From Psammoneis japonica (taxonomy: Eukaryota), in the NCBI GenBank assembly GCA_008632985.1, contig QPGO01000286.1:1-64000 (forward strand): a stretch of DNA of 64,000 bases. The letters are read 5' to 3'. Within the stretch, counting starts at the first letter, position 1. Every line of letters starts with the position of its first letter. Below the pieces are notes generated by a model. That model made no database searches, was not told the DNA's origin, and was given only the letters and a program-made list of their open reading frames with translations. Of this stretch, positions 1-63,648 are shown piece by piece. The position numbers and the translations under genes were made by a program.

Positions 1-735
1 CCGCCAAGGCCACCTGGACTGTGCCAAGCGTGTCTGTGGATTCCTCTCCAAGATGCAACATGGTGCCCTCCGAGTGTGCACTGAGGAACCCAACTGTTCG
101 GACCTTCCCAAGCCTGTGTGTGACTGGGCTCAGCCCGCATGTGGGGAGGCAGAAGAACTGCTCCCACAAGATGTGCCTGAGCCACTTGGCAAGTTTGTCA
201 CCACAACTCACTGTGTTGATGCAAACTTGTTCCATTGCATGCTCAGTGGGCTTTCTGTTGCGGGCATCATTCATTTCCTCAACAAGTTTTTGGCTGATTG
301 ATTCTCCAAGAAACAAGCAACTGTCAAGACTGCTGCATGTGGATCTTAATTTGTTGCCACAAGGACATGTGTTGAGCAGATCATTGATCTGCGCATCACT
401 TCACATCACCTTGGCGTCCCCGTCCGTGAAACATGTTACATGTTCGGGGACAACAAGCTGGTTGTGGACAGTGCTGCCATCCTGCACTCCAAGTTACACA
501 AGTGACACACCACCCTCTCATTCCACTGTGTGCCTGAGATGATTGCTTCCGGTTTCCTCAAGTTTCACTTCATTGAAGGTTCCCGCAACCCAGCTGACAT
601 TCTCAGCAAACACCAGGGCTGCTCCCAGGTCTGGAACCTCCTTCATCCCCTGATGTTTTGGAACTTTGATCCGGAAGCTTTCAACCAATCTGACCTCAAA
701 TCCATTGCTGTTGGCCCCTCAAGCAAACTGGGGAG
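1..735 (+). pseudogene. Ty1/copia (CoDi-like) pol 3' end (RT/RNase H), degenerate, ending in the polypurine tract
   Basis: Translation EMIASGFLKFHFIEGSRNPADILSKH..SQVWNLLHPLMFW matches the Copia RNase H C-terminus (NPADILTK motif). GGGGAG (730-735) directly precedes the LTR. Confidence 0.85.
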
Positions 736-981
736 TGACAGGATTTGAGCAAGATTTTGGTTTGTCACACATGATTGTGTGTGCTCTCAGCTTTGTACGT
801 GGTGCATGATGCAGTTTGCTTTCAAGCCACACAGCTCACAAGAACAATGACAGCAGCACCAACATCACAACACCAGTCTTTTGGCTCCTGCAATGGTCTC
901 TGCACGGAGCCTCATCTGCCATTTAGACAGCAGCAAGGAGTCATTGTTTTCTTCCACCCCAGCAATCTTCATTTTCTGTCA
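736..981 (+). mobile_element. Copia 3' LTR, copy 1 (246 bp)
   Basis: TGACAG...CTGTCA termini, follows the PPT, and aligns with the copies at 13638-13897 and 38185-38429. Confidence 0.9.
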
Positions 982-1420
982 CTGCTTGTTCACCCATTGG
1001 CATCTTGAGATGACCAATGCACAGTTCAATGCTCTCTTCCCACAGAACAGTGCAGCCACAAAGAAGACTCCCAAGAACTTGCTGTGCAACATTTGTGGCA
1101 AGCCAGACATTGGGCTTGTGATTGTCCAGACAAGCCCCAGACAGCCAGAGTCTAAAGTTGCTGATGGCAAGACTTGGTGCTGGTGTGGCATGTGCCACCA
1201 TTGGTCCACTCCTCATGGCGCCATTGAGCATGGTTGCAAGGATGGTGCTCCTTCTGCTCTGACACAACAAGCCAACACCCTGTTCCTGGACCCTGGCACA
1301 CAGCACCCAGATTTTGAATTTGAGTTGGGGATCAAGGACATGCTGCTTGAACTGTTTCAGGCGGCACATGCCTTGTTTCATCCTTTTGCCTCCCTTTTTC
1401 TCTTTGCTGCTCTGGGGTGA
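982..1420 (+). pseudogene. Copia gag-region fragment (Cys/His knuckle), degenerate
   Basis: KVADGKTWCWCGMCHHWSTPHGAIEH resembles the W-x-WC..C..W..H motif of diatom Copia gag. TpA-depleted. Confidence 0.55.
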
Positions 1421-3405
1421 TGGTGTTCTCAACTGCCAGCTGGTTGGTGGGGTGTTGGCATTGACACTGTGACACTTGTGCTGTCAAAGTTTGAACACAA
1501 TGCCTGTGCCAAAGCACTGTGTGCTCCTTCTTCTCCTCCACCACCCTGTTGGGCGGTGCAACAAGGCACCAAATTCTACATGAGTTGTCACTGTTGGGGA
1601 TGCTGCAGGGTGCAAGATGTCTTTCCTTCTCACACTGGACAGTGTCATGCTTCTCCAAAGTGGCGTGTTGCTTTGGTGTTGTGTTGTCATCATTCTGTTT
1701 TGTGCTCATCACAGAGGTGCACTGGGCAGTTTTGGACATGTTGGCAGCACAGAAAGGATTGATTTGGAGCGAGGTGACATGACCACAAAGCCAGCTGCAT
1801 GCTGCACACGGATGTCTCATTGTGATCATGCACTGCTGCCAGCATTGCACAAAATGGCAAAGATGGCCAAGCTGGTGCTTGTGTGTGGCAGCCAAAAGCA
1901 ATGCTGACCCGCGTCTCTCTTTGGAGGGAGCACATCTTTTCAGCTGTCTGCGTGTGTTTGTGCATGGGCAGCTCCAGGTTTTGTTCTTTCTCTATAGAGC
2001 GACATTGGGTTGTCATCTCAACTGGCCCCACTCGGGCAAAAAATCGAACCACTCAGTGGTTCGCAACTTGCGCAGCATGAAACTCACAACTTGCACAACA
2101 AAGTGGCACCCTCCCCACACACAACCTTTTGACAGAGTCAAAACGCTGTCATTCTCAATGCACCATGTTGTCAGCAACTGCTCGTGCGTGTGTGGAGCAC
2201 AGTCACCATCAAATCACCGTCATGGTCGTCGGTGGCAATTTTCTCACCCTGCAGAAACCACCGCAGAGCAGCACCAGAAAAGAAGATCGAACCATTGAAT
2301 GGTTCGCTGCGCAGACAAGTGCCAAGAGCCCCGCAGAATTGGCAAACCATGATGTGGTTCGGGGAAAATGCACAGAAATCTACGTCAAATTTGCGCCAGT
2401 GGGAAAATGCCAAAATTTCAAAATTCATCAGAAAAATGAGGCACGACGATGAACAACATGGCAGCAGTGCAGCGACTTTTAAGAATCGAGCAAACTGCTG
2501 AAATGAAGTTGGCATCTTGTCAAATGGACATTGCCTCATCATCTGATGTTGAGTCACCATGGACATCTCATTGTTGTTCACATTTTTTCCCATCATTTGT
2601 GGGGTCGTTTTTGGCTTGCCCCCCCAAACCATGTGATGGTTCGGGGCAAGCTGCGCACGAATTCTTGATTTTGCATGGCAAACCACTGGATGGTTTGTGC
2701 TGGGAGTGGGGCCAGCTGGAACATGAATTCAGCAAACACAAGTGGAGCACTTTCACAAAATGCAACTCAACTGCTGTGACACTTGCAAAGGGAACAGCTT
2801 TGACGCACCTTCGTTGCCATTGCCACCACCAGCCACGACAGGGATCATGATGAGCGCCAACTGCAAGAGTTGATCTTCAGCAGCTGCAGCAGCAGCATGA
2901 TGATCATGTGGTTGCACAGGACCCAGGACACTGTCGATTTGGTTGGGAAAAGCACGATGTCACTGGCACCCACCAACTGCTGGCGGTGGGTTCAGAGCTC
3001 CACCAACTCCTGGAGGTGGGTGCATGGGGGTCCTCCAACTCCAAAATGATTGGTGACAAGGTTGGGCCAGCAAAGCCTCCAGCTGATGCAGATCCTGAAT
3101 TGTTCCATTGGGGTTGGAGACAACACTGCCAGTTGCAATCTTGCTGATGGAGAACTTCACAACTTCAGTGGCTTCACTTTTGCCACAAAAAAATTGAATC
3201 TTGCTCGCAAGGTTGTAAAATTCAGGTGCACTTGCCCCGACAGAAATTCAGCCCATTGGCCATTGCCGGTTAAACATCAGAGTGCGACGGCCTGGGTTCA
3301 ACAGCTCTGGCTGCTCTCCAGCAGAGCAGAGAGCGGTTTCACGGTGAGCAGTTTGAACACACAGGGACACACGGCATTTTGTCGCATTTGGCAACATTTT
3401 CTTAA

Positions 3406-4299
3406 GACGGGTTCCAGTCCTGCTGCAGGTGGGACTCCGTGTGACATTGGGCCCGTAGAATTCTATGTGCGAGCCCCGCAGTGCGAGAATTCAATTGATG
3501 GACACATTTGTCTTCAACATCAAATGAACTGCCAAGTTTGTGGTGCAATTGTGCCTCTTGCCACTCGACGTTTTTGCAAATGCGCCTGCCCTGCGCGATT
3601 CTTAACGTGGTGCGGGTGCAAAAGTGGGCCAGATTCTGTGCACGCAGAGCTTGGCATGTTTTCCACACAAATCGCTAAAGTCGGCTCGCCAACTTGAACC
3701 CTCTCCAGGACGATGGAAACATGGACATTTCACATGACAAAGTGTTTGGACTGCACAACCACACTCTCCTCGACTTGTTTGTGACAAGAAGTTACAAGTT
3801 TCCATGGGTTTCTCGTTTTGCACAGCTCTTTGAAACTCGAGCGTCGCGATTTCGGCACCTTTCTGATTAGATTCATTACACATCATCAGAAACCCATGAA
3901 AACTTGCAACTTCTCATCACAAACAAGTCGAGGAGAGTGTAGTTGTGCAGTCCAAACACTTTGTCATGTGAAATGTCCAAGTTTCCATCGTCCTGGAGAG
4001 GGTTCAAGTTGGCGAGCCAACTTTAGCGATTTGTGTGGAAAACACACTAAGATCTACGTACGTAGAATCTGGCCCACTTTTGCACCCGTGCCACCTCAAG
4101 ACATTGTAGAATCGCGCTGTGACAAAAAATGTCAAAAGTTGTTGGACGGATCGCTCAACAAGTGTGCAGTGCCGTAAAATGACACAAAATGTCGAAAAAA
4201 TCACGTGGAAATCTACGTGCGCGACATACGACGTGATTCAAAAAACTGTCGATGTCACAGTTCAGCAGTGCGAGGTCCCACCTAGACCTGGAACGCGTC
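3406..4299 (+). mobile_element. MITE family A, copy 1 (contains the foldback insertion)
   Basis: TIRs GACG(C/G)GTTCCAG..GGTGGGAC; TSD TTAA at 3402-3405 and 4300-4303. Confidence 0.9.
3606..4095. mobile_element. Foldback element, 208-bp inverted arms, 74-bp spacer, TTAA target (Kolobok-like termini)
   Basis: Arms 3606-3813 and 3888-4095 are reverse complements. Flanks TTAA/TCAA. The empty site GATTCTTAAGAC is present in MITE copy 2 (~5104-5115). Confidence 0.9.
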
Positions 4300-4479
4300 T
4301 TAAATGGGTTGATGATTTGTCACAAAAAGACGCGAATTGCGACAAAATGTCCGGGTTGGCGACAAACGGGACAGAAACATTGTTCAATCAAGCGACAAAA
4401 TGATTGATGTAAAAATGAACCATTGGTTCAGCGGTTCAGCACGGCTGGCTCGGAAAGCAAGACATTTTTACTTAGAAAA

Positions 4480-4680: not shown

Positions 4681-4917
4681 GCAAACACACCTTTCTTCTT
4701 GTGCCTTTTGGCTTTTCCTTTCACTTGGACATTGAGAGCCTCGGGCAAAAACTCACCAGACATGACAAACAAGGTCGCAATGAAGTCATTCCCAGCCATT
4801 GAAGAGCACTCCATGCTGCAAAGGAAAAGGTCACAGGAAAGAAGAAGCATCGCGTGCACCATGAAAAAGAAAGGATCTGGGACGGCTTTGGAGCTTTGCC
4901 GCGTGCATGACGTTGCA

Positions 4918-5306
4918 GACGCGTTCCAGCCCTGGGTGGGACTCCGTGTGACATTGGGCCCGTAGAATTCTACGTGCGAGCTCCGTAGTGTGAGAATTTA
5001 ATTGATGTGTGCATGTGTCTTCAACATCAAATAAACGGCCAAGTTTGTGGTGCAATTGTGCCTCTTGCCACTCGACGTTTTTGCAAATGCACCTGCCCTG
5101 CGCGATTCTTAAGACATCACAGAATCGCGCTGCAACAAAAAATGTCAAAAGTTTTTGGACGGATCGCTCAACAAGTGCACCGTAAAATGACACAAAATAT
5201 AAAAAAATCACATAGAATTCTGTGTGCGCGACATACGACGAGATTCAAAAAACTGTCGATGTCACAGTTCAGCAGTGCGAGGTCCCACCTGGACCTGGAA
5301 CGCGTC
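4918..5306 (+). mobile_element. MITE family A, copy 2 (389 bp)
   Basis: GACGCGTTCCAG...CTGGAACGCGTC termini; TSD TGCA at 4914-4917 and 5307-5310. Confidence 0.9.
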
Positions 5307-5664
5307 TGCATTCATTGAGATGGACAGGACAGCTGTGCGCGACATTGCATTTGTTGAGACAGGACAAATTGAGCTTTGGTTCAGCACTGGTTCAGCAAAA
5401 ATCAATTGCCCTTTGGATGCTGGCTCAGCAAAAAATGTCTTGGCTCAGCACTTTGTTGCTTGTGGTTTTTGAATCATTGCAATTTTGTTCTTTTGTTGTT
5501 GAGAGATGATGTGATTTACAACCAACCTGCACTTTGGCGATGTCGTTTCAATGAGTGGGGCAATCAACAGAATTTGGCGATCGACGTCATCAACGAAAAT
5601 TCATGCGACAAAATTTGTCGCATCCGACAAATTTTGTCGGACGTCTGACAAAATTTGTTGGCAT

Positions 5665-6445: not shown

Positions 6446-7841
6446 ATGAGCACGGAACCGGAATCTGCCGTGGTCCAGGAGGCCAATGACACGCCTTTGA
6501 TCACTGTGGGACAGGAGTCACACTTTGACACACTTCTGATCCGCTTTGAGAAGGCTTGTCGTGACGTTGCGGCACCCAAGCCCCTAATGCCGACGTCCGA
6601 GTTTCCCAACAGCCCCCCCCTCCCCAAAACCAACAACACCCAACATGGATACAATGTGCTCACCGTAGCTTGTGCCATTGCTCATCACAACAAAGAGAAA
6701 TGTCCCTTTGGGCTGAAGGCAAGAGGCAAACAGGCTCCTGCAGGTGGCGAGCGGATAAAACTGAAAGTCGAGCGCTGCTCTTTCAACTGCATTTGCAGCG
6801 ACAAAGCCAGAAGGGCATACATGACTTGGAAAACAAGACATGAAAAAGAAAAGAACTCTGGCCCGAGGAAGAGGCGTCAGACATACCGTAAGATCTGTTA
6901 TGACCATGCACTTGACAACACCTGTGACCTGCCGACCTGCGATTGCTGCAAGACAGCGGGTTGCGACGGAAAGCAGGCCAACGGGGAACGCACCTGTGTG
7001 ACATGTCAGTCAAAGAAAAAATTGGATGGCATCGACTTCAAGCGAGCTAAAATTTCGACACGAACAATCAAGGAGGACGACTTGGTGCGGTCGCCGCCGT
7101 TTGTATTTTGGAACCCAGGTCAAGATGCAGAGGACACGAAACTGCATGAAAGGTACCAAATGGAAGAATCATTTCGTCACGTTGCAAAGGTGTCGAACCC
7201 CCCCAACCCCAAAACCTCAACAAGACCTAACCTTCAATCAAGCTCAGCATTTAGGGAAAGGGATTGGCGGGATTTGCTAGCGTCTAACAAGGTGTGCTCC
7301 TATTTTCATGCTTTTTGTTTTGTTTCTGGCAAGATGCTTTCATTTCCAACACAGGAAAATTGTCATTTTTGTGTTTTGGTGACAGGCAGCTAACCGGTCT
7401 GTTGAAAATGAAATGATTTCTGAATCTGGTGTGAAGGACAATATCGACTCGTTTGGGTTTGCCGACAACGATGGCTTAGATGTCCCAACGGACAACGATA
7501 ATACTGGTAACGACACCACCTCCAGCAACACCACTACAGCAACTTCGTTGCAATCTTCTCCAGTTCAAAACAGCAGCATTGAAAATGAGGACACTTTGGT
7601 CGGGACCGAGACCAAACAAAACCGAGAACTCTGTGAAGTGGATGGCACTAGAGACGAGGGGGTGGAGAAGGACTCTGACAGTCAGTATCAGGAGAAGAAT
7701 GGGCGCCCGTGTGATGATTCAAAAGACCAGAACAGGCAGAGACTAATGAAGGTTGCCAGGAAGCTCAAGGTGCAGGTAGATTGGGCGACAGACGACGAGG
7801 CCGAAACTGAGGGCTGCGGTTGTCAAACTTTATATTTGTGA
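6446..7841 (+). CDS. Hypothetical protein with Cys-rich central region and acidic C-terminus; exons 6446-7291 and 7386-7841
   Basis: ATG at 6446. A 94-bp GT..AG intron (7292-7385) joins the two ORFs in frame. Tyr codons are present. Confidence 0.6.
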
Positions 7842-9199
7842 TACCGGTGCAACTGCTTGTTGCTTTATCCAATATTGGTGGGTACAGTACCAACTTATAC
7901 TGCATCTATATAGCATTTTCTTTACCGTGTCTCACATAAAACTGTTAGTAGCTAATTGATGCAACGGAACGCTGCAGGAACACTTATGCAAAAGTGGCGG
8001 CCGGCTGTAGTTGTTGGGCTTGAACCCCTGCTCGAGAACAAGTAGTTCAACAGTGCAGTAGGTTCTTCTCTGTCCAAGATATCCCGTATTGAATGAAACA
8101 CGCTGCGAGCAACGCATGGTTTGTGATCTTGTAGCTGCGTAGCCTCTTGCGTTTCGTTTCATCTCCAGTCACATAATCCATAGGATTTGGGTTTCCTTCA
8201 AAATACTGGTGAGTCTGCACCAGAAGTCTTCAAAAAGACTCGGTCTTACCAATCTCATATTTCTTCTTTTCAGGAAGTGTGTCAAGATATGCGGGTGTTT
8301 TCAAAGGCAATTTCGCCCTAGCAAATGTCCTACCGATGTCCGTGGTTTCGTTTATTGTTAGGTCGTCGGTATCTAGGGCCTACCGTAGAGCTGCGAGCCA
8401 AGGCATAAATCACGAAGAGATGGACTCAACTCTAGAGCTTCCACGCGCCGACAAGCGACACTCACTCATCGTCTTCTTGTTGCACGAAACTTCTTTCGAT
8501 ACTTCATCCCTTGTCATATCTTGAGCTTTTCCTTTTCCGCAGCTTGCGCTTCAGGTCTTCCAAATCACAGGATTCTGGATAATCCCCTCCTTCACCTTGT
8601 GTGCCGACCTGGGTAATCGGAATGTTATTGTTGTTATTGTTGGATGAGGCTCTCCCGTAGTATCCGTGCGGGCCATCCTCTTTTTCTCTTTGGCATGGTG
8701 GATGAGAGGGGGTCATGGCTCGTTGAGAAAGGTTGATGAAAAGCTCACCGCCAGTGGAGTGTTACACAATGGTGTTGACAAGAATGAAGAAGATGACGAT
8801 CCGTCCGTTGTGTTTTCAGCCGACGTACTCATGAGCTACTACGAACGATTGTCAAATACGCAAAGTGTGAATATGGAATGAACCATTTTCTCTAACACCT
8901 AGCACGCATCAACATGAAGCTATCCTGTGACTGCTCCACGTCGACACTCAGAAGTCTTTAAGATAAGAAAGCGTCATGGAAACTTTAAAGAAATACACTT
9001 GGGACTTGACTGTGCTTAATAGGGTCGACGCGACCTGGCCGCAAACAGCGTCAGTACGTATTCTGCAACAGTTCGATCCGCCATCGTTGCGGCTTCATTA
9101 GGAGAGTGGACGAAGCCGAGTGAGCTTTGCGGTTCGAGTTGGCACGATAGATTATACGTAGGAGTTTGCTTACAACGGTCGTCACAACTTAGAAGTCGC

Positions 9200-10560
9200 G
9201 ATCTTACTGACACCTACTATGAGCAGAATTCGGATCCGCTCAATCTGCTCCGAAAGGCGCTCTTTGTCTACATAATACAGCTCGACCGATATCAATGACT
9301 TTTGCGCGATTGGGGTCGTCTATACTCGGAACTATTTTCCGAAGTGCAATGTCATTGTGAAGGACCCAGCTTTGCTCAGTGATTCTGCACTACGCACAGC
9401 CGAATGTTTGAGCCCTTCCGACAATTTTCCGAGACCAATGTCGTCAAAGCCGTCCAACTCTCGCTCAATGCAAGTCATTCCGACTCCCAGATGAGTACTG
9501 TAGCCCCGAAAACGAGGAAGCACGCCCTCCAAATCGGACCTGCCTGCAAGCGCTTGGAACATTCTAGCCTCGTTGTCCATTTCTTTGGCGACACGCGACA
9601 TACTTGGATCTCGTTGTACCTTCACGAGAACGGATGGATATTTCGGCGTCGTGAGTAGCTGAATCGTACTCGTCATATCAGAAAGTTCGCAGTCCCAGAC
9701 AAAGAGCGTAGACGCCAGATTTTCTTGTCCTGAACTTGATCCAGTTCCGTCTCCTCGTCCAAAGCCTTTCCCATTGTTTGGGCCGCCGTTGTAGCTCGGA
9801 GGGAGTCTTGGAGGCTTTTTTCGTTGTAAATCATCGCGATTGCTAGATCTCTTTTGTTGCGCTCGAGCCGCCTTTCTTGCAGAACTTGGGTGCACCGGAG
9901 CGTTCACGAGTTCATGGTTTTCAAACCCTGTCATTGTCTTAATGCTTGAAAAACTGAGGGTTCCACATCGGTACTTGCAAAGGGGCGTGAGATTTCTAAC
10001 GCGCCATCTTCCGTTCGCTTACAGAAAAGCCATCGTTCATAAGTATGCATGATACCATAACGTCGCTTCCCGGATAACATCTGCCAGTAGAGCTGGCGAA
10101 CCAAATAATGGAAGATCTTCTTTTTAGGATTCAGCCAGTGCTCCGGAAGAGATTCTTCGTCACACATCTTTTCGCAATCAAAGTTCCGTGGCACCTCCCA
10201 TTGTTCAATAACGTACCGATGACTGTTTTCTTCTTCTTAGAAATCGAATTTCGAAGAGGGTTTAGTTTGGAAACAGGTACAACTATCGACGGCGCCGGCT
10301 GCCACTTTAAACTTTGCGTCGCTGGTCTGCACGCTTCCCTTTGGCCGGTGAAAAGAATTCGGATCGAGGACGACTCCCCCAAACCTCTGGAGCCTCTTTT
10401 TCCTTTTTCAGCAATAAGACCATCGGGGTTGGTGCAAAGATTTCAGCGACAAGTCGAACTTTGTCCATTTCCAACAAAAAGTCTGATTTTGGCAAAAATT
10501 AGCGGTTTGTTGAACACAACAACAACAGCAAATCTGATAATTGGCTTTTGAAGGTTGAAA
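9200..10560 (-). pseudogene. Frameshifted protein kinase-like gene
   Basis: Across frames: VLVK, EMDNEARMF, LPRFRG, then VLHNDIALRKIV (catalytic loop) and KVIDIGR (DFG-like). Frameshifts near 9365 and 9935. Ends are approximate. Confidence 0.7.
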
Positions 10561-10849
10561 AGTGTACTCCAGTTCACAGAGCGAGGTCCAATGGCCCTGA
10601 TGGGGGCTGGACACACTCACTCATGCTCCTGAGTGATTGGGGGTGCTCAGAGGCATCGCAAAATGACACGGGCGAAGTGTCGTGCGAGAAAATTGCAAAA
10701 TCACGAGCTGATTAAAAAAATGCCTCTGCATGTCGACCCATCCTTGACAATTGATCAATCGCCACCTTCGCAGAAATGTGCAGGACATGCACCAAGAACC
10801 TCCAACTTTGCTTTTTGGGTGCTCCATTTAAAGGCAAGTGCGAGGGTGA

Positions 10850-38429: not shown

Positions 38430-38449
38430 CCCCCTTGCTAGCTTGAGGG

Positions 38450-50673: not shown

Positions 50674-51132
50674 TCAGCATTCGCTCTCCAGCCTTTTGAA
50701 CGTTTTTCCACAAATTGCACGCATTTGCGAAAAACACTGTCTCATTTTAGCCGTTTTTCGTTTGAAATTTCTAAAATTCACCCCAAAACAAGGGGGTTCC
50801 CAGCCTCAATGGAATCTCCTGCAGAAGTGCATGACCGAGCATGCGGTGCGTGAGCAGATGATGAGCCTCGGGTGTGAAGAACCCATGTTGAATGGCTTTG
50901 TGTTGATTTTAAGAACATCATTTGTCAAGCGATCGAAACGCAGCAACTTTTTGTGCAACAGTCCTTCCAATCTGATGTGTGGCTTTAATGCGATCATTCA
51001 TGACGTGTTGCCCGCAGGGGTGGACAGGCACATGCACACCGCAGCAACTCGACCATCCCCTGTCTGAAATGTCTCCATCCAACGCAACGCATCGCATGCA
51101 ACAACTGCTCCATCCCCTGTCTCAGAGCCCAA

Positions 51133-51500
51133 GGAACCCCCGCGAGAAAGTTTGTAGCCCCAAGGAATGCAAGCACGAGAAGTTTGTAAAGCGTCGGGAA
51201 ACCCCGCGAGAAAGTTTGCAGCCCCCCAGGAAAGCAAGCGCAAGAAGTTTGTAGAGCGTCAAGAACCCCCACAAGAAAGTTTCTAGCCCCCCAGGAACGC
51301 AAGCGCGAGAAGTTTGTAGAGCGTCAGGAAGCCCCGAGAGAAGTTTGTAGCCCCCCAGGAATGCAAGCGCGACAAGTTTGTAGAGCGTCAGGAACCCCCG
51401 TGAGAAAGTTTGCAGCCCCCCAGGAACGCAAGCGCGAGAAGTTTGTACAGCAGAACGTCAGGAACCCCAGCGAGAAAGTTTGTAACCTCAAAGGACCCCA
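51133..51500. repeat. Minisatellite, ~64-bp unit, about 6 copies
   Basis: ggaaccccgcgagaaagtttgtagcccccaggaatgcaagcgcgagaagtttgtagagcgtca repeated head to tail. Confidence 0.9.
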
Positions 51501-54025: not shown

Positions 54026-54244
54026 TCGCAGCCAAGACTCTAAGCCAAGCAAGGAGAGGACCTCCTTGACTGGACCGAGAGTCACCGCGCGAATGCAGGA
54101 GCGAAATGGGTTGAAGGACGGACGACGGACGAGACGAGCGGAAACGAGGCCAGCCCAAGGGATCCCCTCATTGTCTGGCAGGATGGGAGACACCATGGCA
54201 CTGTCGGAGGCGTCTCCCAGGAGATGCCAACGATGAAAATCGAA
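54026..54244 (+). repeat. Split direct repeat A1
   Basis: 219 bp, near-identical to 61985-62203. Confidence 0.95.
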
Positions 54245-55170
54245 TGGTTTTTCTCTCTCTCCTGTCAGTCAATGCTGAAAATCCCTTGCGTGGTCTGCTT
54301 GCGCAGCCGGGAGTGTCTCGTGCATTGGTGCTGTTTGTTGCCACGCCATTTCGGCGCTGTCCTGTGGATGCACCTCCCCAATTTTTTTCACCACTGGTGC
54401 TGACTACAGTCACGCCATCTTGGCGCCATGTCACGTGGGCATTGCTCTAAATCCTGACTGGGTCCGCTTGTCAGCGTGGACCGCTTCGGCGGCCGAGGAT
54501 TGCCTCGCACTCTGGCCTGTTTGCCACACCTTTCAACGGTGCTTTCTCACAAGGAGCACATCCTCATGTGGACGGTCTCAGCACCATTAAAAGTCCCGCA
54601 TGGGCAAACAGTGGCATGGCTTTTCAATCCGCCTGCCGCTTTTTCCTGAACGCCCATGTTGGGCCCCTTTTCTTTTGCCGCTCTGCGGTTCATGGTCATT
54701 GCCTTTCCTCTCGGCGTGTCCAATTTTTCCCCTCTCCCAGGGACGTGGTGTGTTTAGACTTGTGCACCAGCACACTGCAGTGTCTGAATTGCCAGCTCTA
54801 TCTGGTCGACATCAATTGTGTGCACATGTGTACACTCCCGTGAGGGTTTAGTCAAAACGAAATTTGCCACCACGTTTCGGGGGTTTTTCGTCTTCTCGCG
54901 AAATGCGCGCCATCACGATGATGAATGGTGATGGAAACTGACCCGTCACATGGGAATGAAACTTGGATTTCTTTCTTATCTCCATTCATTGGACAAGTGT
55001 GGGAATCGTGAAGGGTTGCGTTCGCGGAACCGACACGGTGTCAGCCAACGCTTGTCCTTCTCGAGCAATTTCCACACGCTGGTGTCCTTCACTTTCCGGT
55101 GAGATTGCTCTCACTTTTCCTTTTTGCGATCGGACAAGCCTTTGGTTTTCTGCTGCTCTGTTGTTCCACC

Positions 55171-57449
55171 ATGAACCACGCCCACGCTGCTGCCATCAAC
55201 CGCGGTGAGCTCTCCGCTGCAAAGCGGCACTCCACCGCTTTGCCCTCCTCCACAGGTGCGATCAAGTCTGTCTCAACTGCTGTCCACCGTGACACCCAGA
55301 AGGAGCTGCGAGACCATGTCTTCACGACCTCTGACCTTTTCTACGCGGTCTGCAATCGCAAGATTGCGGTTGTGGCGAAACCTCGCCCCAGGCAGCATGC
55401 TGATGGGAATCTAAAGTGGATCGGGAGCCTCTCGGATACGATCGGCGAGGTCATCCCAATGTTTGGCAGTTGGACTCGTTTCCAAGGCCATGCAACCACT
55501 CTAGTCCCCCAGGGCACTGTGGATGCTCATCACCTGCCCAAGTGCGAACTCAGCCCTGACGAGATTGACGGTCCCGTTGGCAATGACGGCAACAACGTGC
55601 CGGCGTCGATGGGTCGTCTCCATTTTGGGAATCCTTCCGGACCGGCAGAGCGTCCCTCCATCGTCGCGCTCCCGATGTTCCTGCCAATCCCAATGGGTGT
55701 CACCCTTCCTGTTGACTTTGACCCAGCAGATCCCCCAGCATCCCTTGCCACTAACTTTCCGCTCGGAGTGGTTTGGGCTCAGGGTGTGTCCTGGTTGCTT
55801 CAGCACAACGCGTCTGTCTCTGTCACAGAAGGCGGCCCTGTGTTTGAGCAGAACGGTTTTGCCATTGTCGATGAGTTTGCAGGCCTTGAGATCCACAATC
55901 TCGACGACAATGATGCACAGATGCTCCAACCTCTGACGGATTGGTGTGCACCAGTCAAGACCACAATGGACGCCTTTGCAGATGAGACCTGGAGGCAACT
56001 CGGTGGAGAGCCCGCGCAGACACCAGCTCCCGCCGCCCCAGCCCAAGGCACCAACGGACAGGTTCCGAACCACACCATCAACATCCCGCACCAGGACTCG
56101 AAGAAGGAGTCAGACCAGAAGCTGAGGGCGCACGACATTGGCCACCGCTGGTCACTCTGTGCGTTCCGAGCGACTGCTGGCACAGGTCCGGAGGACCCGC
56201 CCATGATCATCGTGGGCGAGCTTACGGACCAAGCGGTCAAGATTCTGCAGGACACGTCGGCTGCCAATGCAAACCGTGACCTTGCGGATCTTGTTAAGAT
56301 GGCTGTTGTTGCATCAGCCCGTGGTGACAGTGGTCTAGACGCTGGGGTCGATTGCAAGTGCACCACAGTCAACAAGGCCACACGGACTGTTTCCGCGGCT
56401 TTAATGTGGTTGCGGAGCCCCCGCAGTGTGGCCAGGCTTCGGACCGTACGAAGCTGTCTGTCTTTCCCTTTCTTCCCCCGAAGACTGCATCATCTTCATT
56501 TGCTGGTCTCAAGGACGAAGGGAGGACACTCCATCGGGCACTTGCCAACGGCTCCGACTGCAAGATCCCCGATGACGCAAAGGCGAGTGACCTTTGCATC
56601 CAAGGAAGGATGGACACTGCCAGCGATCTGTGGTCAGCACTTTGCAACTTTCGCTGTGTCCTTGGATGTTGGATCAAGGACTTCGACAATGCGGAGCTGT
56701 GGAAGTCCCTGGATGCGTGCGCAAAGGTTCTCTGGTCGCACCCGGGCCATGCGTGGCTCAAGAATCTCGAGGACCCGAAACCAGTCGTCGCTGGCATCCT
56801 AGATGATTTCCAGACTGTTGTCAAAGTCTACTTTGAGATCGGAGACTCTCCCTTGTACCGTCAGGCGGTAGAAACCGAGCGTCCGCTGAGCTGCCAGACA
56901 GCAAAGGACGCTCGCACTCTGGTCAAGTCCCTCATTGTGGACCTCAACACCGCGATCACGCGGGGCAAGCCTCTGGCCTTTGCGGAGGCATCTACATTGG
57001 CCCTTGTCCCCCCAGGCAACTCTGTGTTTCCCTCTGCTGCTAGCGGAACGAAGGACAATGCGACCAAGTCTGGTCAACCTCCGAATGAGAAGCCGCGTAC
57101 AGGGGAAACAGATGAGAAAACCGCCGAGCTCTGCAAAGCGATGGGTGTGCTCAATTTTTCGGGCACGAAGCGGCTCCCGACCAGCCCCGTTTTCTACAAG
57201 AAGCGAGGATCAGATCAGGAGGAACGTGTCTGCATGTACTTTTGCACTGAGGGGCACTTCTGCAAGTTCCCCAACTGCCCGAAGCCCCACCCATCGTCTC
57301 TCTCCAAGATTCCGAGTGAAAAGAGGGATGCCTTTTGCCAATTTGTCAAAGACACCCCTGGACTCGATTTTGTCCCTGGCAAGGGCCCAGACGGTGCATC
57401 CCAATCAGGTTCAAAATTTTCTAGTCTATGCACTGTACCCTGTTGCTAA
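55171..57449 (+). pseudogene. gag-like ORF1 of the YR retrotransposon with C-terminal CCCH finger; frameshift near 56355
   Basis: Two overlapping protein-like ORFs; CMYFCTEGHFCKFPNCPKPH. Confidence 0.7.
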
Positions 57450-57529
57450 TGCAGTGTTGTCCAAAACTGTTTTGTTTTTACTCTTGATTAGTCTACGTTA
57501 TCCCGGATAGGTCCGTTCGTCTCATCGCA

Positions 57530-60418
57530 ATGGATGTCGACAACGACAGCGATCAGGAGTTCGAGGTGATCGATGCAGAAAAAGAAGAGACCGGAATGAG
57601 TGTCGATGATGCCATCCCAGCTATTGACGCTGCACTTGCCACGTCGGTGAAAGAGCCGCACCCGAGCCTACGCCGAGGTGCGGTCACGCCGCAGCCTCCC
57701 GTCGACGAGAATGAGCTGATTGAGCTATTCCCTACCTTCTCCATGGTCCATAAGAAGAAAGGGACCGATCTGATTCCTACAATCAATAACGGCTTCAACA
57801 AGAAGGCACGTGAGCACTTTGCCAATGCGGAACTGTCACCGGGCGTGCGTGCTAAACTGGACCAAAAATTCGGTAAGGAAAGCTTGAATCAATGTTTCTT
57901 GTTGGAAGCGTGTTTGCGTCATGTGTTGTCACCGCTGTTGAAATCCGGATACCTTTCGCCACCGGTTGATTGTGTGAGTGACTTGTCTGCCCAAATCGCC
58001 TTTGGGGGCGATTGGGAGAACTTCGGAGCGGCCATCCCGGAAGCAGCCGAGTTCATGAGTCTGGTCCAGGAACATGGCGACATCGACTTTAATCCTCTCC
58101 AAGGCTACCCCAAGGGATGGCAAAAGGAGACAACGGTCAATGCGGATAGAGCCGCGATGACAACTGCCGCGTTGTTGCATTTTGATGGCGACCCAGCAAA
58201 CCTGGTTCGCTGGGTTGGCGGACCGCACGTCAGTGAACACAGATGCACGCAGAAAATGCTCCGCTTTCTACAAGGTCGTGTGCCCGACGAGACAATGGCA
58301 CACGTTCGCCGCATCTTCCAAGACGGGGCGCCAGCGAAATGCAACACTGCTTTCTCTGAAGCAAACTTCCAAGCAGCTCTCAAGTGCGGAAACCACAAGA
58401 CCGTTGACGCTGCACCTGACAAAACATTGGCGGCAGTCGTCAAGGACAATCGCAAGGGTTTCACGCTGCTTTTTGACCAGCGTCTGGTGCCATGCTTGCT
58501 GAACTGCCATCTCACTCCTCAGGGGATGGTGGACCTTGACAAGAAATGCAAGAGTCCGTGCCCCATCTTCGACAGTGCGATGCGAGCGACTCCAGACGGT
58601 GTGGCAATCAACGACACGATGGACCTCAAGCACGAACCGCCGATCACGTTCCCATCAGCGGAAATGGACTTTATGGTGTGGACATGGAACATGAGAATGT
58701 CCTGCCCACATGAGGAGATCTGCCTCGGCGATGATGATGTGAGTGGCGCTTTCCGCAACATGAAGCACCACCCGAACCTCGTCGGGATGCATGCCAGCGT
58801 CCAGTGTGGACCAGGCGTCCCACAGACGGGTTGCACCTTCGGCGACAAGACCAACCCAAGCAACTGGGACGCCATTGCCAACGCAAGACAACATCTTGCT
58901 CAACACTTCTGGCTGGTGCCCAACATGGTGGAGCTCGCCCAGCAGTGTCTCCCATCGACATCATTCGCGGAACCTCCAACAGCTGAAGAGGTGGCGTCAT
59001 TCTGTCCTGCGGAAGCAGACGCTGTCAATCCGGGCGTGTTCCTAGACGGCAACCGTCTCCCACCAACATGCAAGCACCACATCGACGACAACTTCTACGG
59101 AGACACACGTGACTTGATGAAAAGAACAGTCGCTGCGAGCGCCCTGGCCGTGTGCATTGTGTTGGGCTTCCCACGCGATGAAACTCCGGATTTCCCAAGC
59201 AAAGAGAAACTGGACACACTGTGCTCGCATCTCCGACGAGCCCTGGGAAGGCACTTCAACTCAAGAGCACTGTCGGTGGGAATGCTCCCATACAAACGAG
59301 AACAGTTCCTTGAAACTTTGCAAGAATGGTGTGACAAACAACGGCACACACTGTTGGATGCAGCGAACCTGAATGGTCAATGTGAATTCCATGCGCGGTG
59401 TTGTCCATGGGCTCGGCCGAATTTTTTTGCACTCCAGAATTCCGTGCGGCGGGCTGTGGTCGTCCAATGCGCCGTTGTCAAACGAATCATGGAGCGACAA
59501 AATTTCAAATTAAATTTTGAAACTCAACTGCCGAGTCATCTCAGGAATGGGCTGCCGAGCTCACTTGCGCGCACACAAGCCCAGCTCCTCTGTGAGCTGA
59601 AGATCGAGATCCCGATGACATCCGATGTCATTGATGTGATGAAGGATGCAGCACCCTACATCGAATCGACGCCAGACCCATGGACAGCACCGATTGGATG
59701 TGTCATGCCGCGAGTGCCACATTGCCAAGCAATTGGAGACGCCAGTGACGCAGGCGGAGGAGCCCACTGCGCGGAACTCAAATTTTGGTTCGCATTTCTT
59801 TGGGGACCAAAAATGGCGAAAGGGCTCCGGCTGAGGAAGGCCTCCGACCCAGAGTGTGTCCATGTCAACACAGCAGAGTTTGTTGTCATCACACTCAAGC
59901 TGGCAGCTGCAATTGTCCGCATGGAGACTGTGACCCGAGAACGGGCCCATGAGTTCTTCCGGAACGGCGTCGTCCCGCTGCACCTGGTTGTCAGGAGTCG
60001 TTCAGACAACATGGTGTCGGTCAACCGGTCCAACAAAGCAACGTCAAAGTCGCCACAGGGGCAACGATTTGTTTGGGTCTTCTGCAAATTGCTCCGCCGT
60101 GCTCGTGCCAACTTCAACGGTGATCACATCTTTGGCGACGAAAATTTTGTTGCCGACGACATCTCACGACCTTCTGTTTTTGCCTTGATCTTGCATCGCA
60201 CCCATTCTGAACAGCTGTTTCGGAAGTGTCCCTTTCTGAAGACCTGGGACTGTTTCCAGCCGAGTCAAGAGCTGCTGCAGCTCCTCTCCTCACAGCTGTC
60301 TACCAAGCACAGAATGGCACCCCAGATCCCAAGCGACTTGGGACAGCTCGTTCCCGCAGAATCCATTTCCTCTGCTTTTACAAGAGTGCGAAGTGGCACC
60401 TGGGAGATCCGGAAATGA
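57530..60418 (+). CDS. Reverse transcriptase/RNase H (open frame, but YIDD reads HIDD)
   Basis: DDVSGAFR, TFG..NPSNW, HIDD; RNase H GDAS, HVNTAEF, SDN, HIFGDENFVADDISR. Confidence 0.9.
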   Translation: MDVDNDSDQEFEVIDAEKEETGMSVDDAIPAIDAALATSVKEPHPSLRRGAVTPQPPVDENELIELFPTFSMVHKKKGTDLIPTINNGFNKKAREHFANAELSPGVRAKLDQKFGKESLNQCFLLEACLRHVLSPLLKSGYLSPPVDCVSDLSAQIAFGGDWENFGAAIPEAAEFMSLVQEHGDIDFNPLQGYPKGWQKETTVNADRAAMTTAALLHFDGDPANLVRWVGGPHVSEHRCTQKMLRFLQGRVPDETMAHVRRIFQDGAPAKCNTAFSEANFQAALKCGNHKTVDAAPDKTLAAVVKDNRKGFTLLFDQRLVPCLLNCHLTPQGMVDLDKKCKSPCPIFDSAMRATPDGVAINDTMDLKHEPPITFPSAEMDFMVWTWNMRMSCPHEEICLGDDDVSGAFRNMKHHPNLVGMHASVQCGPGVPQTGCTFGDKTNPSNWDAIANARQHLAQHFWLVPNMVELAQQCLPSTSFAEPPTAEEVASFCPAEADAVNPGVFLDGNRLPPTCKHHIDDNFYGDTRDLMKRTVAASALAVCIVLGFPRDETPDFPSKEKLDTLCSHLRRALGRHFNSRALSVGMLPYKREQFLETLQEWCDKQRHTLLDAANLNGQCEFHARCCPWARPNFFALQNSVRRAVVVQCAVVKRIMERQNFKLNFETQLPSHLRNGLPSSLARTQAQLLCELKIEIPMTSDVIDVMKDAAPYIESTPDPWTAPIGCVMPRVPHCQAIGDASDAGGGAHCAELKFWFAFLWGPKMAKGLRLRKASDPECVHVNTAEFVVITLKLAAAIVRMETVTRERAHEFFRNGVVPLHLVVRSRSDNMVSVNRSNKATSKSPQGQRFVWVFCKLLRRARANFNGDHIFGDENFVADDISRPSVFALILHRTHSEQLFRKCPFLKTWDCFQPSQELLQLLSSQLSTKHRMAPQIPSDLGQLVPAESISSAFTRVRSGTWEIRK

Positions 60419-61467
60419 CTGTGATTGGCAAGGACCCAAAGTGCTGCCAACTGGTGCTAGCTGTGCATGCATTGCATCTAGCTAGCGGCTCCACTCTCTA
60501 CTGCAAGAACATCTCCTCAGGTGCCATCAAGGAATGCGTCCACGACGTGTCAACGTTCGTGTCTCTGTTTGGTTCCACGCATCGGGACGTCCGTAAAGAC
60601 AACAGCGTGGACACCAAGATGGGGTGGATCCTCAGGAGAGCATTTGATGAACTCCAACGGTGCGAGAAAGTCCCGGAACGGCGCGAGTCATGCACGTTGC
60701 TGATGCAGCAACGAGCGACGTTGACAGCAGACAGCATGCGAGAAACTGACCCGGACGCGATCGAGGTGGTCCTCGCTGACTGGTTTGAGATTGGGCCAAT
60801 GGCCGGCTTGCGAAGCATCGAATGGGCTCAATCCAATGAGCACTCAGACCTGGAGAACCCAAGGCTGAACATCTTTGAGGAGACCTGCGTGTTCTGCCTC
60901 GACGACGTCCGCTGCGAGACAAAAGACAAGCACCGACACACCGGAGCGGATTGTCTCATCCCCAAGCAAGAGGATGTCGAAAGCATGTGCATCATGTTCC
61001 GAGCTCAGAAGAACATGCACAATGGCGAGGAACGCCAGTTTGCTGTGAATCTCGATGGCAAGCACGACTTGGCAAAGCAGATGCTTCGCGTCATCCGACG
61101 TTTCGTGCAGGTCCGTGGCAAGGACGACAAGATCTGCCCCCTTGCTGTCTACTTCGATCCAAAGGAGGACAAGTGCCGTCTCGTCACGTCCAAGAAAATC
61201 AAGACCCACATGCATGGAATTGCCGCGGAAGTTTGCCACCTCGACCCGGTGAAAGATGAGAAAGCTCTCAGCAAATGGTCGGCTCACTCCCTCCATGTTG
61301 GAGCCTGTAATGTCCTTCACGAGATGAATTTTAGTGGCGAGCAGATTAAATGGCTGCTCAGATGGCGATCTGATGCCTTTGTGGCTTGTCTCCGCAACTG
61401 CCTGGGTCTTTCCCAGGCCCATTGTCGAGCTCTCGACAAGGCGGCACCCATGCCGTTTTTCGATTAA
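60226..61467 (+). CDS. Tyrosine recombinase overlapping the pol 3' end (open frame, catalytic residues altered)
   Basis: GLRSIEW, HSLHVGA (from HSLR), LRWRSDAFVACLRN (expected catalytic Tyr reads Cys). Confidence 0.9.
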   Translation: MSLSEDLGLFPAESRAAAAPLLTAVYQAQNGTPDPKRLGTARSRRIHFLCFYKSAKWHLGDPEMTVIGKDPKCCQLVLAVHALHLASGSTLYCKNISSGAIKECVHDVSTFVSLFGSTHRDVRKDNSVDTKMGWILRRAFDELQRCEKVPERRESCTLLMQQRATLTADSMRETDPDAIEVVLADWFEIGPMAGLRSIEWAQSNEHSDLENPRLNIFEETCVFCLDDVRCETKDKHRHTGADCLIPKQEDVESMCIMFRAQKNMHNGEERQFAVNLDGKHDLAKQMLRVIRRFVQVRGKDDKICPLAVYFDPKEDKCRLVTSKKIKTHMHGIAAEVCHLDPVKDEKALSKWSAHSLHVGACNVLHEMNFSGEQIKWLLRWRSDAFVACLRNCLGLSQAHCRALDKAAPMPFFD

Positions 61468-61734
61468 TCCATTCACACGGATTCAATGTGTCCCCTTTGT
61501 GTGTGTCCTCTCTGCGTGACATAAAATCGCACACTGTCGTCCTGTTGCACCCGAAATTTCAATTTTGAAATTCGAAATTTGATCCCAGCAACGGGATCGT
61601 ACACATGCATTCAGGAGGAACATTCGTCCCTCCATCGTGTCTGAAGAAAACAGATTTTTTTTTCCGGTTGGCTCTGCCTCCGATGACATGGGCGCGTTTG
61701 CAATGCTTTCAGCATTCCGCGTCGGCAGCATGGT

Positions 61735-62475
61735 CTGCACACAGTGAAAAAGGGAACCAATTGCTTGGCACTGGCGATTCCAAGCCCAGTCCCACATCCT
61801 AATTGCTTCACCCACTAGCGACTGTTTTCATCGTGGCAACAACATGAGTCTACACACGGATGTGAGCACTGCGCATGTTGTGGACGACACCAATGTGTTG
61901 CATCAACAGACAAGAGACGCTTCCACTGTGCCATGTCATCGGAGTGCAGACAGCCGAGGCGGAGGCAGGGAATCCGTGGGATTCTCGCAGCCAAGACTCT
62001 AAGCCAAGCAAGGAGAGGACCTCCTTGACTGGACCGAGAGTCACCGCGCGAATGTAGGAGCGAAATGGGTTGAAGGACGGATGACGGACGAGACGAGCGG
62101 AAACGAGGCCAGCCCAAGGGATCCCCTCATTGTCTGGCAGGATGGGAGACACCATGGCACTGTCGGAGGCGTCTCCTGGGAGATGCCAACGATGAAAATC
62201 GAAAACCCACCACTCCCTCCCCTGTGCACAGTGAAAAAGGGAACCAACCAACTGCTTGGCACTGGCGATTCCAAGCCTGGTCCCATGTCCCAATTGCTTC
62301 ACCCACTGGCGACTGTTTTCATCGTGGCAACAACATGAGTCTACACACGGATGTGAGTGCTGCGCATGTCACAGACGACACCAATGTGTTGCATCGATAG
62401 ACAAGAGACGCTTCCACTGTGCCATGTCATCGGAGTGCAGACAGCCGAGGCGGAGGCAGGGAATCCGTGGGATTC
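61735..62475 (+). repeat. Split direct repeats B1-A2-B2
   Basis: B1 (250 bp) and B2 (254 bp) flank A2. Confidence 0.95.
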
Positions 62476-63648
62476 CACCATGATGGCACCACCAACCAAC
62501 CCAGAAACTGCAACCTGAGGGCATTGGGGGTCTTTGGGGGTCCCCAGGTGACACTTTGGGAACTGTGGTTGAGCATTGCAAGGCTGTCCTGGCTTGTGCA
62601 GTTGTCGCCCAGTCACGTCATCTCACAAAGGAAGAGACTTGAATCCCAGCTCAGCAGCAAAAGCAGGTGACACTTTAAGAGCTGTGGGCAAAGAGCATTG
62701 CAAAGTGCCCCTCTTGAACAGCTGCAGCCCTCAGTCACTTTTTCCCGCAAAGGATGAGACTTGAACATCCCAACTCCACAGAGTGAAAGGACACCGTGAT
62801 GGGGCGACCAACCAACTCAACAACTGCAGCCTGAAGGCATTGGGCTGAGCATGAAAAAAGTGAAGTCTGCAGATTTTTGAGAGAAAAGGCTCTCCCAAGA
62901 CAGAGATTCCAGCCACCCCCGCCACTGCACCACACTTTGCACCGATTTGTGTTCCAGTTCCTGTCAATCCATTCTGCTGGACAGCCAGATCTCACACAAA
63001 AATTGTGCCACTGAGCACGGGTGTGATTTCCATCATCTTTCCCAAAACAAACTTGCTGGGAGTGTTGTGGTTCCAGCCTTTGTTCTGTCTTGAGTTGGGA
63101 CCAAGATGGAAGGCGGGAAATGGGGGGCAAGCCGTCCTTTCTTCACGCGACATTGCCGTTTTCTACTTTTACAGCAGCGCAACAAAAAATCCGACCGCCG
63201 TTCACCACAAACAGATCCGACAGCCTCACACAAGAGGTCTGTTGCCCCTGCATACTGACCGCTGTTTAAATGTTTTCGCATCATTTGCTTTTACCGGTAC
63301 ACAATGTCTCACATCTGTTATGAGGCGTTTTGTGCGCGGCCGTCAAGGCTCCGCATCTCAATCTGTTGCGACACGGCATCACGCCCATGAGGCATCTGAA
63401 TGACTCCAGCTCTTGAATTTTTGTTTGAAGACGCGACCAATCGCGCTAATACATCTAATGCTCTATCCGCGATGCTTTCAATCATGGATCGAGCGAACGA
63501 TCGACACTCGACGAGCGGCGAATCAATTCAAGCACGAACGATCCGAGCTGTTGCACAACACGCTTCTCACTCTGAACAAGACACATGCACGAATGAGTGA
63601 CAGCTGAACGTCAGTGCGCTGCTCAATCCTAACAACACCAAAGCAGCC

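Follow-up and report, generated by a model that had tools for sequence, protein, structure and literature searches.

Hypermutation that removes TpA dinucleotides from foreign DNA was first reported in April 2026 for the chlorarachniophyte Bigelowiella natans (Mettrop et al., bioRxiv 10.64898/2026.01.13.699255). In mutation-accumulation lines of this organism, 231 of 302 nuclear point mutations fell into an integrated nucleocytoplasmic large DNA virus (NCLDV) and a virophage, 230 of these 231 were A>G or T>C, and every A>G and T>C occurred at TpA (Mettrop et al., bioRxiv 10.64898/2026.01.13.699255). According to the preprint, the rate of ~6e-7 per site per generation compares with 3.5e-10 in the background (~1000-fold), the events are seen in some lines only, 324 TpA-poor coding sequences are enriched in reverse transcriptase (RT), endonuclease-RT, and DDE domains, and the authors put forward an ADAT2-like protein as candidate enzyme (bioRxiv 10.64898/2026.01.13.699255). 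Here, we describe the conversion of TpA to TpG or CpA in the mobile DNA of a diatom. Our analysis concerns 64,000 nucleotides from Psammoneis japonica (assembly GCA_008632985.1, contig QPGO01000286.1, positions 1 to 64,000; hereafter the window), and in particular a tyrosine recombinase (YR) retroelement at positions 54026-62475. Given the report from B. natans, the chemistry is not new to science; new, as far as we could check, are its occurrence in a diatom, its near-saturation over several classes of transposable elements (TEs), the evidence for action after insertion, and a rule for the 3' neighbour. Our literature searches, whose coverage leaves out most subscription journals, retrieved no report of such TpA hypermutation in diatoms; PMC9258296 mentions hypermutation for immunoglobulins only, and a term search of the B. 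natans preprint text found neither the word "diatom" nor the word "trinucleotide" (bioRxiv 10.64898/2026.01.13.699255).

Similar to B. natans, the changes in P. japonica are almost exclusively A:T>G:C, are restricted to TpA, which becomes TpG or CpA depending on the strand, and are confined to non-host DNA. The two hosts are a rhizarian chlorarachniophyte and a stramenopile, respectively, and while de novo events were seen in B. natans, those in P. japonica are deduced from fixed sequence. The regions hit in B. natans are described as single-copy NCLDV and virophage insertions with mild depletion (Rho TpA 0.45), whereas several TE classes approach saturation here: an observed/expected ratio (o/e) of TpA of at most 0.43 is found in 55 of the 64 1-kb windows, and 34 of the 64 additionally reach a TG+CA value of at least 1.52, the same number that pass both 5% cut-offs of the B. 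natans paper. The ~1000-fold excess over background given for B. natans has its counterpart here in near-saturation at TpA, set against a single change outside pyrimidine-purine dinucleotides (YpR) in 468 bp of repeat sequence.

Other mutational systems share individual features with this signature. Repeat-induced point mutation (RIP) of ascomycete fungi likewise degrades mobile or duplicated DNA in place, by dinucleotide-specific transitions on both strands and with sharp borders. RIP, however, converts C:G to T:A, mostly at CpA, and thereby creates TpA and stop codons and lowers the GC content, whereas the direction is opposite in the window: A:T>G:C changes destroy TpA, generate no stops, and raise the GC content (0.506 in depleted blocks vs 0.469 in host blocks). 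Restriction of retroelements in animals by APOBEC3 (on cDNA) or ADAR (on double-stranded RNA) also ruins the coding capacity of elements through context-biased editing, and ADAR shares the preference for a 5' U. These enzymes act on RNA or nascent cDNA, strand-specifically, and on new copies only, while the process described here changes integrated DNA on both strands and includes elements that are not retroelements. Deamination of 5-methylcytosine (5mC) feeds TG and CA as well, and the resulting decay of CpG is also present in many TE blocks of the window. It differs in substrate and direction, and the two processes are separable, as the YR retroelement has lost TpA and kept CpG.

TpA loss in mobile DNA and its direction

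Across the whole window, TpA has an o/e of 0.22 (870 TpA), compared to 1.54 for TG, 1.47 for CA, and 0.66 for CG. Blocks were drawn by hand from a 1-kb composition scan. Eight depleted blocks (1-3400, 10550-26000, 27500-37400, 41900-43100, 46700-47400, 48500-50400, 52000-56400, and 58000-62900; 41,857 bp) contain 259 TpA (o/e 0.10; CG 0.54, TG 1.64, CA 1.59), while four host blocks (7500-10200, 38300-41600, 43500-46400, and 63400-64000; 9,504 bp) contain 378 (o/e 0.56; CG 0.96, TG 1.18, CA 1.15). For TpA, the o/e is 0.30 over five blocks of intermediate composition (9,895 bp). The depleted DNA is transposon-derived, and the host blocks on the same contig, a baseline of 9.5 kb, are spared. This agrees with the original prediction, which had described nearly all transposon-derived DNA of the window as TpA-poor and TG/CA-rich, had assigned ordinary TpA and Tyr content to host segments, and had placed these segments correctly to within a few hundred bases: Tyr makes up 3.3% of the host open reading frame (ORF) at 38404-39843 and 0-1% of the ORFs in depleted blocks. 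The borders are sharp, with TA density rising from 0 to 5-12 per 100 bp inside a single 100-bp bin, and the longest TA-free runs extend over 1,280 bp (42305-43585) and 1,227 bp (35725-36952). The products are balanced between the strands (4204 TG vs 4229 CA). ApA is undepleted (AA/TT o/e of 1.25 in depleted vs 1.15 in host blocks), and the frequencies of AA, GA, and AT are unaltered in TE DNA. CpG o/e values of 0.13-0.6 occur in many TE blocks, older blocks also being CpG-low, and over the depleted windows the TpA and CpG o/e values are correlated (r = 0.63), which could reflect age or a common chromatin state.

The stretch of 64 kb holds 58 stop-to-stop ORFs of at least 180 aa, and in TE DNA both strands carry ORFs of 200-400 aa. 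Given that TAA and TAG are nearly absent, long stop-to-stop ORFs arise on both strands of the depleted blocks, and most of the long ORFs in this DNA are probably spurious. A Pfam scan covered 166 of the 184 stop-to-stop ORFs of at least 110 aa (the 18 omitted are overlapping or antisense ORFs at 32.9-33.5, 45.0-45.4, and 57.5-61.3 kb). The TE domains that it detected in depleted DNA are the endonuclease (26097-26972, plus strand) of a long interspersed nuclear element (LINE) and NDC10_II (E 4e-10) in a Crypton-like ORF at 25404-26048; no domain of Copia or Gypsy long terminal repeat (LTR) elements or of Mutator-like elements (MULEs) was present in the scanned ORFs. The original prediction had counted all TE classes as affected, and this held for the YR retroelement, the LINE, the Crypton-like ORF, and a repeat resembling miniature inverted-repeat transposable elements (MITE-like), but LTR and MULE elements found no such support.

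The YR retroelement (54026-62475, plus strand; TpA o/e ~0.12, CpG undepleted) has the layout A1-ORFs-B1-A2-B2, with repeat A1 (54026-54244) pairing with A2 (61985-62203) and repeat B1 (61740-61984) pairing with B2 (62227-62475). Between the repeats lie two upstream ORFs (55012-56799 and 56328-57446), both conserved in related loci, an uninterrupted RT/RNase H ORF of 976 aa (57488-60415), and a downstream ORF of 418 aa (60211-61464) with homologs in 42 of 80 related loci; all are on the plus strand, and the order of the four ORFs is kept in related metagenome loci. Split direct repeats, an RT/RNase H ORF, and another ORF downstream of it make up the arrangement of the DIRS order, and we place the element provisionally in this order with an Ngaro/PAT-like layout, judging from the layout and from known motifs, the RT motifs having been read by eye in the family consensus. 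The RT/RNase H ORF belongs to a family with at least 84 homologs (~44% identity; lowest E 1e-234), and at least 80 metagenome loci contain relatives. None of the 19 family members scanned matches a Pfam family, and no PDB sequence match below E = 0.1 was obtained, so this polymerase family is one that escapes profile annotation. In 78 of 80 related metagenome loci, TpA has an o/e of 0.41-0.92, which provides the family baseline.

Comparison with such relatives polarises the change. In the RT/RNase H ORF, 10 columns with conserved Tyr among the 84 homologs read 6 Cys, 1 His, 1 Trp, and 2 Tyr in the window; when the 84 homologs were used as pseudo-queries themselves, Tyr had changed to Cys in 9 and to His in 16 of 810 cells (Fisher p = 8e-9). 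With tblastn outgroups for all four ORFs of the element, none of 10 Tyr columns is kept (6 Cys, 2 His, 1 Trp, 1 Ala), including 4/4 in the downstream ORF (3 Cys, 1 His) and 2/2 in the two upstream ORFs (1 Trp, 1 Cys). The LINE, a non-LTR retroelement in several ORF pieces at 26097-31754 (plus strand; identified by Pfam and homology), has lost all 15 of its conserved Tyr columns. Seven of these are in the RT ORF (27104-28789), aligned with 150 homologs (3 Cys, 3 His, 1 Trp), and eight in the ORF at 29868-31754, which carries RNase H-like motifs and a weak zf-RVT match and whose alignment is thin, with 5 homologs (1 Cys, 2 His, 5 others). Pooled over the three sets, 0 of 25 conserved Tyr are kept, with 10 replaced by Cys (TGY) and 7 by His (CAY). 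The same alignments served as controls. A had changed to G at the second position of codons for Asn, Asp, His, Lys, Glu, or Gln in 1 of 141 columns (Fisher p = 1e-8), and T to C outside TpA at the first position of codons for Phe, Trp, Cys, or Ser in 2 of 106 (Fisher p = 1e-4); Asn>Ser together with Lys>Arg was seen in 1 of 51. An enrichment of A>G at TpA over other NpA contexts in polarised TE alignments had been named beforehand as the decisive observation, and the loss of all 25 Tyr next to a single change in the 141 control columns provides it.

Action on integrated DNA and the 3' neighbour rule

When a YR retroelement integrates, both copies of a split repeat are identical, and differences between them therefore record later events. 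A1 and A2 differ at 4 positions in 219 bp, all within YpR: one CA/TG double (CA in one copy opposite TG in the other), one TA/CA, and one CG/TG, while 16 CpG are intact in both copies. The 15 differing positions between B1 and B2 comprise five CA/TG doubles, two TA/CA, one TA/TG, one CG/CA, and one T/C outside YpR, with 11 CpG intact in both copies. Together, 18 of 19 differences are transitions in YpR, with one change outside YpR in 468 bp. Since the copies share 27 intact CpG and differ at only 2, the six CA/TG doubles cannot stem from CpG decay and must represent former TpA. These former TpA were resolved in opposite ways in the two copies, which places the action at the level of DNA, after insertion, and on either strand. 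The process is far faster than background mutation and than CpG decay, and it is independent of the latter. Repeat pairs elsewhere in the window follow the same pattern, with 426 of 501 transitions in YpR and ~92 adjacent CA/TG doubles among them (the underlying high-scoring segment pairs overlap, so that the counts are not independent). Paired copies thus do differ at TpA-derived sites on both strands, as had been noted from the sequence at the outset. The mutator postulated there, which turns TpA into TpG or CpA (A:T>G:C) in mobile DNA only, opposite to RIP and 5mC decay, is supported by outgroup polarisation, terminal-repeat divergence, and sharp borders.

The survival of TpA depends strongly on the flanking bases. 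Relative to host density, it is lowest for ATAT (0.007) and increases over ATAC/GTAT (0.016), ATAG/CTAT (0.06), ATAA/TTAT (0.09), GTAC (0.10), CTAC/GTAG (0.15), CTAG and GTAA/TTAC (0.24 each), and CTAA/TTAG (0.35) to TTAA, which is not reduced at all (1.06). A per-strand model for these ten NTAN classes, in which the adenine of each strand survives according to its own 3' neighbour, yields survival factors of 0.89 for A, 0.49 for G, 0.30 for C, and 0.10 for T (r = 0.99), with a weighted sum of squared errors of 4.1 vs 98.6 for a context-free model. Survivors alone cannot tell which flank is decisive. The product counts can, and they point to the 3' neighbour: ATAA has become ACAA (excess of 1.56 per kb) and not ATGA (-0.09), GTAA has become GCAA (2.84) rather than GTGA (0.53), and TGA is unenriched overall (1.06), compared to 1.4-1.8 for TGC, TGG, and TGT. 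The pooled survival order is TAT < TAC < TAG < TAA, and TAT is the most depleted context in 7 of the 8 depleted blocks and, among partly mutated blocks, in the pool as well as in 4 of 5 taken singly (chi-square p = 3e-14). We conclude firmly that the process favours a pyrimidine on the 3' side, T most of all, and disfavours a purine there. Given that Tyr codons (TAY) place a pyrimidine after the adenine, this rule also accounts for the prevalence of Cys at former Tyr positions.

When the YR element is set against 12 unmutated relatives, TAN trinucleotides are reduced to 0.13-0.43, while CGN (1.14-1.35), AAN (0.87-1.05), and GAN (~1) are not; for a comparison of sense-strand asymmetry, the strand composition of the relatives proved too divergent to give a usable baseline. 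Two other members of the family, both metagenome contigs, resemble the P. japonica copy. TpA has an o/e of 0.16 in L033, in which 5 of 5 conserved Tyr have become Cys, and of 0.29 in L036, in which 10 Tyr columns read 5 Cys, 3 His, 1 Tyr, and 1 Phe. In both contigs, CpG is undepleted and the order TAT < TAC < TAG < TAA is seen again, whereas the control loci L001 and L003 have kept 8 of 10 Tyr each. The process therefore also acts in other elements, and possibly in other organisms.

A candidate mechanism and competing explanations

We consider it highly probable that mobile DNA in P. japonica is subject to DNA-level, TpA-specific hypermutation after integration, with an adenine deaminase as the leading candidate for its cause. 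On either strand, an A preceded by T is converted to G with a 3' neighbour preference of T > C > G > A; TpA thus turns into TpG, or into CpA if the change falls on the opposite strand. TAA and TAG are removed and TGA can arise only from TAA, so that no new stop codon is made; reading frames consequently stay open, as in the 976-aa ORF of the YR element, while the replacement of Tyr by Cys or His ruins the proteins. As for the chemistry, we tentatively favour a nucleic-acid deaminase, TadA/ADAT2-like or other, that might be recruited to silenced or foreign DNA and would hydrolytically deaminate adenine to hypoxanthine. Hypoxanthine would pair with C and so give A:T>G:C. TadA/ADAT2 enzymes edit an adenine that follows U33 in tRNA (U33-A34), and this natural substrate fits the 5' T. 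No deaminase domain was detected among the 166 of 184 ORFs of the window scanned with Pfam. The system may serve as a genome defence analogous to RIP, for which repetition, small RNA, or a chromatin mark or foreignness of the DNA are possible targeting signals.

An assembly or base-calling artefact at modified bases is extremely improbable. For this check (INDEPENDENCE), Logan contigs of runs X1-X3 were aligned to the window, single-copy word depth in X1 being ~70-110. X1 contigs with a depth of 31-67 reproduced the TA-poor stretches 34601-35209, 35768-36947, and 49163-49861 with 0 differences, and 42743-43599 was matched by an X1 contig with 0 substitutions and 1 gap; these four TA-free stretches are thus recovered by exact k-mer contigs, which excludes an assembler error. 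This support is not fully independent, as no sequencing platform is recorded for the runs and all derive from a single sample, which may be the one that was assembled. X3 covers 1 of 30 bins and X2 covers the host parts and some TE parts, so that missing cover in these two runs is uninformative. An artefact would also have to spare the normal host DNA on the same contig, to resolve homologous sites of paired copies in different directions (TG vs CA), and to recur in L033 and L036, which come from other assemblies and show similar Tyr>Cys/His changes and context order. We regard as equally negligible the possibility that no mutator exists and that TpA-poor donors, or selection against UpA/TpA in TE transcripts, account for the composition. 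Suppression of UpA and CpG is common to many viruses, but here invariant, presumably essential tyrosines have been replaced, non-coding terminal repeats have changed after insertion, the depletion to o/e values of 0.02-0.1 goes far past known selective suppression, and nearly all relatives of the YR family (78/80) have ordinary TpA. RNA-level A-to-I editing of the ADAR type, or editing of cDNA during retrotransposition that is then fixed in new copies, has very little probability in our view. It would act before integration, strand-specifically, and on retroelements only, while the split repeats have diverged both ways at former TpA, TG and CA are equal overall, and the Crypton-like ORF and the MITE-like repeats are depleted as well. 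ADARs are, to our knowledge, confined to animals. The preference of ADAR for a 5' U, as stated in the preprint (bioRxiv 10.64898/2026.01.13.699255), and the excess of Cys over His (6 to 2) where the YR element once had Tyr codons could be cited in favour of such editing, yet the Cys excess follows from the 3' neighbour rule.

Two further alternatives invoke changes in the DNA itself. Pol eta is known for A>G changes at WA motifs, and the original prediction had listed WA>WG error-prone repair of this type at heterochromatin, possibly triggered by the repair of deaminated 5mC, as one of three candidates next to a DNA adenine deaminase and 6mA-linked damage. The covariation of TpA and CpG depletion among the depleted windows would be in line with it. 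We nevertheless judge this explanation very unlikely and disfavour it, since ApA is undepleted both against host DNA and against the relatives of the YR element, only 1 of 141 control sites shows A>G outside TpA, the pooled data have TAA as the context hit least, and TpA disappeared from the YR element with CpG intact in both repeat copies and CGN undiminished. A modification on the thymine side, in which the T of TpA in silenced DNA is oxidised or otherwise modified (of the 5-hydroxymethyluracil (5hmU) or 5-formyluracil (5fU) type, by TET/JBP-like enzymes) and mispairs with G to give T>C, is also unlikely, but less so. Products and contexts are strand-symmetric, and either base of the A:T pair could be the one altered. 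Dinoflagellates show an enrichment of 5hmU at TpA and TpC, and a thymine that has been oxidised can mispair with G; we know of no report of such a thymine modification for diatoms. ADAT/TadA enzymes, by comparison, naturally act on an A preceded by U, and adenine deamination is what the B. natans preprint, the sole paper on this signature, proposes.

Several observations weigh against hypermutation of integrated DNA as proposed here, or narrow it. The double-stranded outcome fits an alteration of A or of the paired T alike, and for P. japonica the whole case is deduced from fixed sequence rather than from an enzyme, a modified base, or de novo events. The host baseline of 9.5 kb is small, the supporting runs share the single-sample origin given above, and a link to methylated heterochromatin may exist, as it is compatible with the TpA-CpG correlation. 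Against its family-specific baseline, the YR element alone has TAG (0.43) above TAA (0.34); the firm part of the rule is thus that TAT is the most depleted and a 3' purine the least. Finally, the MITE-like copies at 654-982 and 13649-13981, both in TE islands, retain 2 TpA each vs 7 in the gene-adjacent copy at 38185-38449, and both carry an identical TG at 4 positions that still read TA in the copy beside the gene. This suggests descent from an already mutated master copy rather than independent hits, and part of the depletion of any copy may therefore predate its insertion.

While these points leave TpA-specific hypermutation of integrated DNA as the favoured explanation, the following extension is held with less confidence. 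An ancient, enzymatic DNA-adenine-editing defence could be common to stramenopiles and rhizarians, perhaps wider, in which a natural DNA adenine deaminase with 5'-T-A-Y preference would act on all classes of integrated mobile DNA and would have erased ~90% of TpA from the TEs of this diatom. Such a defence would represent, on the adenine side, what RIP and APOBEC are for cytosine.

Further features of the window and implications

The degree of depletion varies among the blocks and within elements. TpA and CpG o/e values are 0.06 and 0.32 in block 1-3400, which holds the MITE-like copy 654-982, and 0.09 and 0.43 in the largest block, 10550-26000, which holds the copy 13649-13981 and whose TE identity is mostly unassigned. 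Block 27500-37400 (TpA o/e 0.11) includes the TA-free run at 35725-36952 and a tandem array of 66 bp x 5.8 (33026-33406), the units of which differ by transitions only, many of them CA/TG doubles or CG/CA; a second array in TE DNA comprises 65 bp x 5.4 (51132-51484). The 500-bp stretch 3600-4101 is 84% identical to its own reverse complement, forming a large imperfect palindrome, and is flanked by repeats common to 4910-5308 and 26760-27163. In the LINE, the 5' endonuclease part (26000-27500) has a TpA o/e of 0.33 and a CpG o/e of 0.91, compared to ~0.1 and ~0.65 in the RT and RNase H parts. A mosaic of copies, a younger piece nested in the element, or patchy action along it could explain this unevenness. 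The LINE RT ORF has 2,644 relatives, mostly proteins of 1,900-2,000 aa aligned over residues ~400-950; neither this ORF nor the RT/RNase H ORF of the YR element matches an RT profile of Pfam. Two of the 150 listed LINE RT homologs, P0194 and P0251, have Tyr contents of 0.56% and 0.42% vs a median of 3.5%, and may be further hypermutated copies in public data.

An isolated TA-free island lies between host genes at 42000-43585. It contains 2 TpA in 1.6 kb, has borders sharp to 100 bp or less, and is fully depleted at single-copy k-mer depth; together with the sharp borders elsewhere, this bears on targeting, albeit weakly, since k-mer depth cannot count diverged copies, which look single-copy as well. 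Terminal inverted repeats and clear TE features were looked for in the island and none were found. In X1, the summed k-mer depth reaches 22,000-68,000 at 35337-36003 and 37338-38671 vs ~70-110 for single-copy sequence, which indicates short repeats in hundreds of copies, including the MITE-like unit at 38185-38449 (plus strand; ~68,000 vs ~85 for single-copy sequence) that adjoins a host gene.

The host segment 38300-41600 (TpA o/e 0.57) contains the Kelch-like ORF at 38404-39843 (plus strand), whose best named hits are in diatoms, with Extubocellulus (60% identity) followed by Cylindrotheca, Nitzschia, and Thalassiosira, in support of the diatom host that the original prediction had assumed; a protein atlas search with this ORF returned only Kelch-type leads that carried no taxa. 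Within its coding stretch 38801-39651 (~850 bp), one X1 contig differs at 13 positions while X2 provides an exact match, as might be expected of a second allele or of a close paralogue. Exons of an EamA transporter (Pfam) follow at 40360-41759 on the minus strand. Two further segments are host-like: 7500-10200 (TpA o/e 0.63, CpG 1.0) and 43585-46400 (TpA o/e 0.53), the latter with a host ORF on the minus strand (44373-45446) that carries an internal 21/42-bp tandem repeat (array at 45055-45364).

These findings have consequences for genome annotation as well as for the biology of mobile DNA. Hypermutated TEs escape profile-based annotation, and the YR family described here is without a Pfam model in any case. 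At the same time, the open frames will make gene callers over-predict, yielding long spurious "proteins" with little Tyr and much Cys and His, and the process raises the local GC content. The 3' neighbour rule offers a biochemical fingerprint against which candidate enzymes can be tested, and for base-editing work, a DNA adenine deaminase with TpA as its target would be of interest. Diatoms are major primary producers, and some species have good genetic tools. A second, distant lineage with the B. natans signature would point to a widespread or convergent system instead of a single-species curiosity, and if the process operates genome-wide, diatoms would carry a mutational genome defence with a chemistry that is the reverse of RIP.

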